From Escherichia phage UP19, in the sequence record OX638288: a DNA stretch of 64,000 nucleotides; one strand, written 5' to 3'. The notes under the pieces are model-generated. The model made no database searches and was not told the DNA's origin. It worked only from the letters and a program-made list of their open reading frames with translations. Shown here piece after piece: positions 5,027 to 6,264 of the stretch; the first letter of the stretch is position 1, and the number at the start of each line of letters is the position of its first letter. A program made the translations under genes and the position numbers.

Positions 5027-5481
5027 TGAAAACTGAAGATTTTGCTCAAGGTCTATACGTTGCTGCAAAATTCTCTGAATTGACTTTAGATGCGCTGGAA
5101 AATCTTCAGCGCACTTTAAAGGTTCCTAATCCGGTTCCTCGTGAAAAATTCCATTCTACAATCTGCTATTCAAGAGTCAACGTTCCATACACCGTTGCAT
5201 CCGGAAGTTTTGAAGTTGCTTCGACAGGACATCTTGAAGTGTGGAAACATGGTGATTCTCCCGTCTTGGTACTGGTTCTCGATTCAGAGTATCTTAAATG
5301 CCGCCATCAGTATGCTCGTACCTTAGGTGCTACGCACGATTTCGATGATTATACCCCTCATATCACATTGTCTTATAATGTAGGACCTCTTACCTTTAGT
5401 GGAGATGTCCAGATTCCTGTCGTTTTAGATAGAGAATATAAAGAACCCTTGAAGCTCGACTGGGCCGAGGATTTAAAGTGA
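5026..5481 (+). CDS. 57B: gp57B, 2H-phosphoesterase fold; Acb1-like anti-CBASS cyclic-nucleotide phosphodiesterase
   Basis: 151 aa; two H-x-T/S motifs (HSTICY, HITLSY); immediately after 57A as in T4. Confidence 0.7.
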
Positions 5482-5687
5482 AATCATACAAAGAATTCTT
5501 AACAGAAGCAATGGAACCCGCCTCTTCGGTGGCAATAGAGGTTTCTTGTACTCCTGAAGAATTTAAAGAAAGCCTGAAAGGTATAAATTGGCTTTCAGGA
5601 GAGTTATCTAATGGGGTTGCCTACTTCTTCGGCCCTCAATCGGATATAGATAGCTGGGTCTCTGAAAATTCTTCATGGCTAAAATAA
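5478..5687 (+). CDS. internal-protein-like small protein with capsid-targeting N-terminus
   Basis: GTG start; [11 protein letters not shown] resembles T4 IP capsid-targeting sequence MKTYQEFIAE; L-x-E prohead-protease-type site. Confidence 0.55.
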
Positions 5688-5698
5688 TTTAAAAAAGG

Positions 5699-5741
5699 TG
5701 TTTACAAGGTCTATAGACATGATACTATAGGCCTATCAAAA
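5699..5741 (+). promoter_or_regulatory. early promoter / stem-loop cassette (PeSL-like)
   Basis: GTTTACA, 16-17 nt spacer, TACTAT, then conserved core tataggcctatcaaaac; member of a repeat family. Confidence 0.6.
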
Positions 5742-5765
5742 CAAACCAACCACATGGAAATCAAA

Positions 5766-5990
5766 ATGAAAACTTATCAAGAATTTATTACAGAAGCTAA
5801 AAAACACGAAGACCAACTGCCGGTTGTTACAAAAACCTTTGACGGTACATTGGCCGATTTTAAAAAAGTCCCTAGTGATAAGCTCGCTAAATTGGCCGGG
5901 AGTATCGGTGAAAAAGATGGCAAGGTCACGTTTTCTGCTCAAGGTACAGCCAATCTTAAAAAACTTTTGAAAGCCGCTGGCGCAGAATAA
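5766..5990 (+). CDS. internal-protein-like protein (CTS MKTYQEFITE)
   Basis: ATG 5766 after SD ggaaa; N-terminus MKTYQEFITEA; position equals T4 ipI locus. Confidence 0.65.
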   Translation: MKTYQEFITEAKKHEDQLPVVTKTFDGTLADFKKVPSDKLAKLAGSIGEKDGKVTFSAQGTANLKKLLKAAGAE

Positions 5991-5991
5991 A

Positions 5992-6264
5992 ATGAAAACT
6001 TATCAAGAATTTATCGCTGAATCTATTCTTAATGAGGAAGTAAAAATTAACAAATCTGTTAAGACTATGATTGATAATATAAATCATCTCTATAACATCG
6101 ATTTGACTAATCATGTAACTTTAGGCAATAAGCTAAACTTTTTTGTATTCGATACTTCAGAACTCGACCAAAATCAAATCAATAATATTGAACGCTTTGC
6201 TAATGACAAAGGGCTTCGTCACGAAACAGCTGGCTATAAAAAATATGCAATTTATCTAAAATAA
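5992..6264 (+). CDS. internal-protein-like protein (CTS MKTYQEFIAE)
   Basis: 90 aa; N-terminus MKTYQEFIAES identical to the T4 IPIII-type CTS. Confidence 0.65.
   Translation: MKTYQEFIAESILNEEVKINKSVKTMIDNINHLYNIDLTNHVTLGNKLNFFVFDTSELDQNQINNIERFANDKGLRHETAGYKKYAIYLK

Follow-up and report, generated by a model that had tools for sequence, protein, structure and literature searches.

The stretch of DNA that we analyzed, hereafter the window, comprises 64,000 nucleotides (nt) from Escherichia phage UP19 (sequence record OX638288) and contains seven open reading frames (ORFs), designated here by their start positions, whose translations open with the motif M-K-(T/S)-(Y/F)-x-E-(F/V)-(I/L/M)-x-E. 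An earlier note on this DNA, prepared from the sequence alone, had likened that motif to the capsid-targeting sequence (CTS) of the internal proteins (IPs) of phage T4, and had proposed that all seven ORFs encode small proteins packaged in the head and injected with the DNA as candidate inhibitors of host defence systems. The seven ORFs are listed below, with an arrow at the putative cleavage point.

5478..5687, + strand: CTS-bearing ORF, 69 amino acids (aa), leader KSYKEFLTE behind a GTG start that overlaps the TGA stop of gene 57B; mature part acidic (isoelectric point, pI, 4.1); phrog_23867 (unknown function).
5766..5990, + strand: putative IP gene, 74 aa, leader MKTYQEFITE↓AK, basic body (pI 9.5); phrog_8765 ("internal virion protein," E 1e-26).
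5992..6264, + strand: putative IP gene, Ip9 by sequence, 90 aa, leader MKTYQEFIAE, a second L-N-E at residues 13–15; phrog_7673 ("internal head protein," E 3e-55).
9178..9795, + strand: CTS-bearing ORF, 205 aa, pI 9.6, leader MKTYNEFLNE-SVLNE↓A; phrog_2280 (unknown function).
17634..17903, + strand: putative IP gene, 89 aa, overlapping the 3' end of the lysozyme gene e; phrog_8765 (E 5e-36).
18419..18718, + strand: putative IP gene, 99 aa, leader MKTYQEFITE↓AK, downstream of denV; phrog_2667 ("internal head protein," E 5e-43).
61006..61188, + strand: ortholog of T4 gene 61.1, 60 aa, leader MKSFKEVMNE, Lys-rich tail; between gene 41 (57328–58767) and gene 61 (61205–62233).

The window belongs to a JS98-like phage of the genus Dhakavirus: the 6.5 kb around the ip locus are 97% identical to the T4-like Enterobacteria phages vB_EcoM_IME281 (IME281 in what follows) and JS98, and the + strand carries the gene order of a T4-like early region (3, 1, 57A, 57B … e, denV … uvsX, 41, 61, 56, and soc). 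Exact matches among the proteins of UP19 were obtained for six of the seven ORFs. A six-frame regular-expression scan, which covered these 64 kb out of a phage genome of about 170 kb, returned the motif at the starts of the seven ORFs only, all of them on the + strand, with no internal occurrence and none on the − strand; when the window was shuffled 50 times, no match arose. The coordinates, the leaders, and the range of lengths (60–205 aa) given in the earlier note were all reproduced.

Comparison with T4 (NC_000866) indicated that IPII and IPIII begin with MKTYQEFIAE, which decapeptide is identical to the leader of ORF 5992, and that IPI carries a variant (MKTFKEFTST...ITE↓A). Tyr4, Phe7, Ile or Leu8, and Glu10 are present in all six ORFs other than 61006, residues 8–10 being LTE in 5478, ITE in 5766, IAE in 5992, LNE in 9178, LAE in 17634, and ITE in 18419; ORF 61006 has Phe4, but Val7, and its residues 8–10 read M-N-E, which triplet is I-K-E, L-K-E, or L-N-E in its homologs. 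According to suppressor genetics of the T4 IPIII, residues 4 and 7 serve capsid targeting and residues 8 and 10 processing, while the ten CTS residues alone suffice for the packaging of foreign proteins (PMC9026906). Among the six copies, nucleotide identity is 80% over the 30-nt leader, but falls to 32% in the 30 nt upstream and to 25%, i.e., background, in nucleotides 46–75; furthermore, the leader copies exhibit 22 synonymous codon differences, with the non-synonymous ones located at positions 3, 5, 8 (Ile or Leu), and 9, and with Tyr4, Phe7, and Glu10 fixed. Diverged homologs tell the same story: those of 5478 at about 50% identity begin with MKFTDFLNE↓AMEP, MKTYEEFITE↓AMEH, MKSFKDFLTE↓AMDP, or MITYKDFLLSE↓AMEP, and those of 9178 at 66 and 32% identity with MLKFKEFISE↓A and MNFKEFLNE↓A, respectively. 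Because the leaders differ synonymously, the identity upstream is at background level, and the leader is kept in diverged homologs, we conclude from the sequences that selection on the leader acts on the peptide and not on the translation-initiation region, the latter being the outcome that the earlier note had singled out beforehand as contrary to a targeting function. ORFs 5992, 9178, and 17634 have in common a longer leader of 15 residues, MKTYxEF(I/L)xES(I/V/Q)LNE, with a second L-N-E site, and distant homologs of 9178 possess one site only, which aligns with that second L-N-E.

Behind the leaders the bodies are unrelated, as had been claimed: an all-against-all BLASTP with residues 1–10 removed gave no significant pair among the seven proteins or against the bodies of the T4 IPI, IPII, and IPIII. 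We compared the loci in UP19, IME281, JS98, JS10, AnYang, CLB_P2, WG01, and T4, and found, in seven phages, at least 12 mutually unrelated body families behind the same leader. Thus, in JS98 and JS10 a single 97-aa cassette replaces 5766 plus 5992; the slot between e and denV, across three near-identical phages, holds the 89-aa ORF 17634 in UP19, a 132-aa CTS-bearing ORF in IME281, and, in JS10, that 132-aa ORF together with an ortholog of IPIII; and the "Ip7" family lies after denV in UP19 and at the ipI locus in WG01. This hypervariable presence and absence between close relatives characterizes the six IP-type ORFs and not ORF 61006.

The placement of the ORFs at the positions of the T4 ip genes was borne out for five of them. 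The ipI slot reads 57B (5026–5481), 5478, 5766, 5992, and trna.4 (6322–6519), and the e/denV slot reads e (17153–17647), 17634, denV (17918–18376), and 18419; ORF 9178, for its part, lies in the region from the tRNA cluster to e.8, and ORF 61006 between genes 41 and 61, so that the synteny claimed for all seven does not extend to these two. Since 9178 in UP19 and a 154-aa CTS-bearing ORF in WG01 both occupy the tRNA–e.8 region (9178 itself being absent from WG01 and JS10), that region is a third, putative IP locus in the genus Dhakavirus. The statement that T4 has three such proteins proved incomplete, because a scan of the whole T4 genome found the N-terminal motif at ipII, ipIII, and gene 61.1 (MKTFKEFIKE), ipI having the variant leader. 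With three IPs plus 61.1 as the T4 baseline, the expansion in the window is therefore six versus three, and not seven versus three.

Four of the seven ORFs (5766, 5992, 17634, and 18419) are already named internal virion or head proteins in the UP19 entries. ORF 5766 is an "internal virion protein" in UP19, IME281, QL01, and IME341, and ORF 17634, a rare cassette whose cluster at 90% has two members, bears that same name in UP19; ORF 18419 is an "internal head protein" in JS98, JS10, and IME281 and forms one BLAST family with ORF144 of WG01, labelled "Ip7 gene product." With the Ip9 protein of phage RB15 (Q38376), ORF 5992 has 78% identity, and it is called "Ip9 gene product" in WG01, and on the basis of this similarity we identify it as Ip9; its AlphaFold (AF2) model (pLDDT 78) has a compact alpha/beta body behind a short leader helix of low confidence. 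Two relationships were considered here and not upheld. A kinship between the bodies of 5766 and 17634, both of which match phrog_8765, was discarded when a direct comparison aligned residues 1–16 only; and an IPI-like fold common to 5992 and 5478 was not supported, since a Foldseek search of the PDB with the two models gave no match at E ≤ 0.001, with IPI* not among the hits listed.

The remaining two IP-type ORFs, 5478 and 9178, represent families that, in the records examined, had gone unrecognized as IP candidates. ORF 5478 is a real gene: in six Dhakaviruses its body is invariant, with 4–8 synonymous versus 0–1 non-synonymous body changes, and its start codon is ATG in WG01 and IME281 and GTG in the other four of the six. 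The records label it as hypothetical or omit it altogether (JS98), and none of those examined names it an IP. In homologs about 50% identical to it, both the leader and the E↓AME junction are preserved. The AF2 model (pLDDT 87) predicts a beta-alpha-beta-beta-alpha body with a short, less confident leader helix, and in BFVD this model matched the "Ip6 putative internal head protein" of phage VR7 (E 8.8e-4, TM 0.71). The giant proteins with PKD/fn3 repeats and the 248-aa repeat protein that an HMMER search with 5478 retrieved were dismissed as repeat or beta-strand noise.

The family of ORF 9178 comprises 143 phage records from several genera, all of them labelled hypothetical. The protein resembles IPIII in size and charge; as a homolog of IPIII it was nevertheless not called, hhalign having aligned the first 25 residues only, with 28% probability. 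Its leader has two tandem (F/V)LNE sites, and at residues ~75–115 a Pro/Ala/Lys-rich linker (AKPAKAPVSKPAAQTKVAAPKPTPKAEPVKEAPKPK) of variable length separates conserved N- and C-terminal domains.

The transcription signals that we could locate around these genes are the following:

5701..5728, + strand: early promoter, sigma-70-type with an extended −10, of the PeSL type, before 5766 and within a 55-nt direct repeat (5691–5745).
6269..6297, + strand: second PeSL-type early promoter repeat (6259–6314), after 5992 and before trna.4, 82–87% identical to 5691–5745.
9114..9149, + strand: terminator-like stem-loop (GGCCC...GGGCC plus a T run), followed by a late-promoter box TATAAATA (9142–9149), 36 nt before 9178, as read from the sequence.
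9856..9883, + strand: third PeSL-type early promoter, downstream of 9178.
17123..17130, + strand: late-promoter box TATAAATA upstream of e.
60985..60992, + strand: late-promoter box TATAAATA, 21 nt upstream of 61006, the equivalent place in T4 having none.

The two-gene module of 5766 and 5992 is therefore bracketed by 55-nt direct repeats, each of which contains a TTTACA-N16/17-TACTAT promoter together with a short inverted repeat; likewise, a stem-loop at 9798–9819, downstream of 9178, is followed by the PeSL-type promoter. The exact string TTTACA-N16/17-TACTAT occurs seven times in the window, at 5701, 6269, 9856, 20192, 29137, 58798, and 59817, always on the + strand, versus an expectation of 0.02, and these elements agree with the consensus TTTACW-N17-TAYWAT published for the PeSL of PST and T4, which elements have been proposed to mediate modular shuffling, the IP locus being explicitly included (PMC4122927). 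As to late promoters, by which some of the seven ORFs were said to be driven, two or three of the seven have a candidate: TATAAATA precedes 9178 and 61006, and the copy at 17123 probably serves the overlapping ORF 17634 as well as e. The other four have none within 200 nt upstream. Further copies stand at 8520, before ORF 8554, and at 63049, before soc; as the total of eight copies in the window, versus 7.6 expected, is no enrichment, the late-promoter calls are positional only.

Beside the 9178 module, between it and the ipI locus, we noted three tRNA genes (Met-CAT, Asn-GTT, and Arg-TCT, at 8086–8318), as in JS98, and a 184-aa ORF (8554–9108) that adjoins 9178 and has apparently hydrophobic, membrane-like segments.

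The evidence computed here, namely the motif, its conservation by position, the absence of kinship between the bodies, the polymorphism between phages, the flanking repeats, the homology to Ip9 and "Ip7," and the fold match to Ip6, leads us to consider it likely that the six ORFs 5478, 5766, 5992, 9178, 17634, and 18419 are T4-type IP genes, borne on cassettes, whose products are injected and probably block nucleases; the packaging, cleavage, injection, and anti-nuclease activity are proposed by analogy with T4. The initial attribution of all seven ORFs to the capsid-targeted IPs holds up for these six, which agree with it at every sequence-level point that we tested, and fails for 61006, which ORF is the ortholog of gene 61.1 and not an IP cassette.

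By analogy with the T4 IPIII, residues 1–10 would constitute the CTS, through whose aromatic residue 4 and Phe7 the protein would bind to the scaffolding core (gp22) and be built into the prohead, and the prohead protease gp21 would then cut after Glu10, in the I/L-x-E site, with a possible second cut in 5992, 9178, and 17634 after the L-N-E that ends at residue 15. The mature protein would remain in the head with the DNA and be injected together with it, and its likeliest job would be to block a host nuclease that attacks modified phage DNA. The genes would be interchangeable cassettes, in which the leader and the flanking PeSL repeats may provide the short homologies for swaps between phages and between loci. 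Each of the three T4 proteins Ip1, Ip2, and Ip3 inhibits a GmrSD type IV nuclease of its own, without cross-protection (Silas et al. 2025, PMC12373910); on ECOR17, T4 requires IPIII, and IPIII lacking the CTS rescues it there (PMC9391042).

The DNA that these proteins would protect is expected to differ from that of T4. At 51442–55646, between the polymerase region and uvsX, the T4 glucosyltransferases are replaced by an RB69-type DNA hypermodification module that encodes a bifunctional nucleotidyltransferase/kinase (567 aa), an isomerase-like protein (132 aa), a kinase-like protein (178 aa), a ThyA-like enzyme (232 aa) with 24% identity to the T4 gp42, and a 297-aa protein; T4-type glucosyltransferases are absent. 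Such a module has been assigned to arabinosylated 5-hydroxycytosine, which modification is predicted for Dhakaviruses (2026 study, PMC13326640). From the likeness to RB69 we would expect hypermodified phage DNA, open to attack by type IV enzymes, and from the predicted arabinosyl group it follows that the targets of the six IPs may differ from those of T4.

Several observations weigh against the interpretation of the six ORFs as IPs with an anti-nuclease function. No Pfam family scored above the cut-off for any of the seven proteins, so that the six bodies have no recognizable domain, and PDB sequence searches with 5766, 5992, and 9178 retrieved no solved homolog. ORF 5478 is acidic, whereas IPs are classically basic, and has a GTG start in most of the phages compared, and ORF 9178 lies outside the two classical IP loci. 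In the literature searched we found no virion proteome of a Dhakavirus. Four of the six ORFs have no TATAAATA nearby, which absence is not decisive, since the T4 ipI, ipII, and ipIII are themselves described as "early RNA, late protein." Finally, when ip4 to ip10 were assayed against 15 GmrSD groups, scored with T-even phages, no new target emerged (PMC12373910), so that an anti-GmrSD role of Ip9 or "Ip7" is unproven, and other systems may be the targets.

With respect to the alternatives, the notion that the common N-terminus is kept mainly as a DNA or mRNA initiation region, or as a recombination site, with no capsid targeting in some or all of the ORFs, strikes us as highly improbable. The leaders do constitute direct DNA repeats (those of 5766 and 18419 are near-identical over 36 nt) and might act as the kind of recombination anchor that has been proposed in IP cassette exchange (PMC4122927), but the upstream ribosome-binding regions are not conserved, the 22 synonymous changes left residues 4, 7, 8, and 10 in place, homologs at 32–50% identity keep the peptide pattern with other codons and even in other lengths (MNFKEFLNE), and in T4 the decapeptide packages foreign proteins (PMC9026906); moreover, recombination at the leader is compatible with targeting rather than an alternative to it. 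A role that is mainly structural, in which the six proteins would be packaged in order to neutralize or condense the DNA or to assist head assembly instead of inhibiting defences, agrees with the neutral to basic character of five of the six mature parts (pI 6.8–9.6), with the slower head assembly and more numerous polyheads of T4 IPIII mutants and the circumstance that only the Lys residues of IPs contact DNA phosphates, and with the failure of ip4 to ip10 to inhibit the 15 GmrSD groups. We nonetheless judge such a role unlikely, in that cassettes exchanged to so extreme a degree among near-identical phages bear the mark of an arms race and not of a structural function, all three T4 IPs have a nuclease target (PMC12373910), a T4 mutant lacking the three IPs grows on laboratory strains (PMC9026906), and 5478 is acidic.

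A narrower alternative concerns 5478 and 9178, either or both of which could be unpackaged accessory proteins of the ordinary cytoplasmic kind, to which recombination had supplied the leader. Consistent with that possibility, neither is annotated as an IP in any record examined, 5478 is acidic, has a GTG start in four phages, and is translationally coupled to 57B, and 9178 lies apart from the IP loci; but the leader persists in diverged relatives within the two families, 9178 is preceded by a terminator and then a late promoter of its own, which arrangement would be anticipated for a virion protein, the 5478 model has an Ip6-like fold, and WG01 carries another CTS-bearing ORF in the same tRNA–e.8 region, so that we assign this explanation a low probability. 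Equally improbable, in our estimation, is that ORF 61006 encodes a CTS-tagged, injected, and diversified anti-defence effector like the other IPs. The CTS-like decapeptide ending in M-N-E (I-K-E in T4), the TATAAATA box 21 nt upstream, and the basic tail would favor that view; nevertheless, residue 7 is Val, the similarity of the protein to gp23* continues beyond the leader for 27 more residues, and gene 61.1 is conserved and not diversified, being matched in about 1,440 phage records, which include T4-like phages of Aeromonas, Acinetobacter, and Vibrio, and adjoining the primase gene in those records examined. Furthermore, the motif does not tag the N-terminus in RB43, AbTZA1, Vibrio phage D479, and PMBT1, where it lies inside the protein, and in T4 gene 61.1 yields an early transcript and proteomics of infected cells did not pick up its product.

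We therefore treat ORF 61006 separately from the six IP-type genes. Its counterpart in JS98 is annotated as 61.1, and the T4 gp61.1 (NC_000866, 18966–19130) starts with MKTFKEFIKE↓DMVAGD. Residues 2–38 of ORF 61006 align with residues 57–93 of gp23, T4's major capsid protein, at 46% identity over 37 aa (BLASTP E 3e-9 and 6e-9), and a profile of the gp61.1 family built with no T4 or gp23 sequences, when run against 1,408 reading-frame segments of T4, retrieved gp23 at E 5.4e-9, the next match having an E of 0.77. The aligned segment of gp23 spans the maturation site FLTE65↓A66, at which the family has an invariant Glu with Ile, Leu, or Met two residues earlier, and ten columns (E10, G15, D16, I24, G27, T29, G31, A32, G37, and P38) are invariant in the gp61.1 family together with gp23. 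In RB43, AbTZA1, D479, and PMBT1, which represent distant lineages, a protein of about 160 aa has the gp61.1 segment as its C-terminal third, which arrangement explains why ORF 61006 matched positions 106–151 of phrog_2086; the hydrophobic-x-Glu site is conserved in the short and the long forms alike (LFE↓D, MNE↓E, LHE↓A, MLE↓D, and VDE↓D). Some annotation pipelines, for their part, call gene 61.1 a "major capsid domain-containing protein." The C-terminus varies: that of UP19 gp61.1 (60 aa) ends in ...ENPKTNDIMALLI and those of the JS98 type (53 aa) in ...EKSENE, the tail being variable or frameshifted and the gp23-like core invariant.

The N-terminal region of gp23, which is turned toward the inside of the capsid, is believed to touch the scaffolding core, and it is where the capsid-length mutations A66D, A94V, and G97S are located (PMC9546572). 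Residues are spaced identically in the last part of the gp23 propeptide (F59-x-x-F62-L63-x-E65) and in the CTS (Y4-x-x-F7-I8-x-E10). From these resemblances we propose that gp61.1 is probably a small paralog of that part of gp23 which faces the core and is cleaved by the protease, that it is itself probably cut by gp21, and that the CTS may be an abbreviated form of the gp23 docking motif. The combined interpretation, in which the CTS would be a portable end of the gp23 propeptide and gp61.1 the missing link between the two, as both a prohead-protease substrate and a component of the head core, we put forward tentatively, as a possibility to which we give rather less than even weight. If that were so, cleaved gp61.1 would be a peptide of about 45 residues resembling the N-arm of gp23*, plus the Lys-rich tail, perhaps retained in the head or regulating its assembly, and the IPs would enter the head by mimicking the docking of gp23 on the core. 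In the literature searched we found no discussion of a relationship between gp61.1 and gp23, although a prior mention in the classic T4 literature is possible. As a tentative lead, gp61.1 might also mimic the Gol region of gp23 sensed by the Lit protease. Farther downstream, between the primase gene 61 and the dCTPase gene 56, the − strand of the window has a hydrophobic ORF of 66 aa (62230–62430), where T4 has dam.

Compared with known systems, the six IP-type genes resemble T4 IPI, IPII, and IPIII in the CTS, in the I/L-x-E site, in the small size of the products, in the two genomic slots (for five of the six), and in the unrelatedness of the bodies; they differ in having no detectable body homology to those proteins, in their number, in the third locus, and in the UP19 DNA being predicted to contain arabinosylated and not glucosylated cytosine derivatives. 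With respect to Ip4 to Ip10, 5992 corresponds to Ip9, 18419 belongs to the "Ip7" family of WG01, the 5478 model is Ip6-like, and the same exchange of cassettes takes place at the IP loci, whereas the families of 5766, 17634, 9178, and, at the sequence level, 5478 were unmatched to any named Ip in the records examined, which did not take in the full list of 1994. The repeated promoters with short inverted repeats that bracket the ip modules recall the PeSL cassettes of the hyperplastic regions in T4-like phages (Arbiol 2010; Comeau 2014), with the difference that recombination at the copies in the window is deduced from their flanking position and from the polymorphism between phages. The propeptides of gp23 (65 residues), gp24 (10 residues), and Alt are likewise removed by gp21 after a Glu with a hydrophobic P3, but gp23 and gp24 are shell proteins, while the IPs and gp61.1 are small and soluble. 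Finally, the Dar proteins of P1 and the ejection proteins of SPN3US and phiKZ are also internal to the head, with N-terminal signals and prohead-protease processing, and are delivered with the DNA, those of P1 acting against restriction; the signals, the proteases, and the proteins are nevertheless unrelated, and the likeness is one of analogy only.

The phenomenon of IP cassettes is not new, having been in the literature since 1994, with its function confirmed for the T4 Ip1, Ip2, and Ip3. Repoila, in that year, is said to have described diverse CTS-tagged ip cassettes at these loci and to have proposed them as host-range or anti-restriction factors. The interpretation as IPs is found as well in Rao & Black (2010). 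What the present analysis adds is modest: two candidate families, a third IP locus, the bracketing by PeSL elements in this genus, and the reassignment of 61006. Within those additions, the relationship between gp61.1 and gp23 is the only part that might surprise a specialist, and could offer a handle on how the targeting sequence is recognized. Among the families of the six candidate injected proteins, those of 5478 and 9178, never having been flagged as IPs, are for that reason absent from the published anti-defence screens. As to the biology of the genus, the IPs of the Dhakaviruses, whose DNA is predicted to contain arabinosylated 5-hydroxycytosine in place of glucosyl-hmC, may target nucleases other than the three GmrSD variants that are blocked by the T4 Ip1, Ip2, and Ip3, a point of practical weight in the choice or the engineering of therapeutic T4-like phages for wild E. 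coli.

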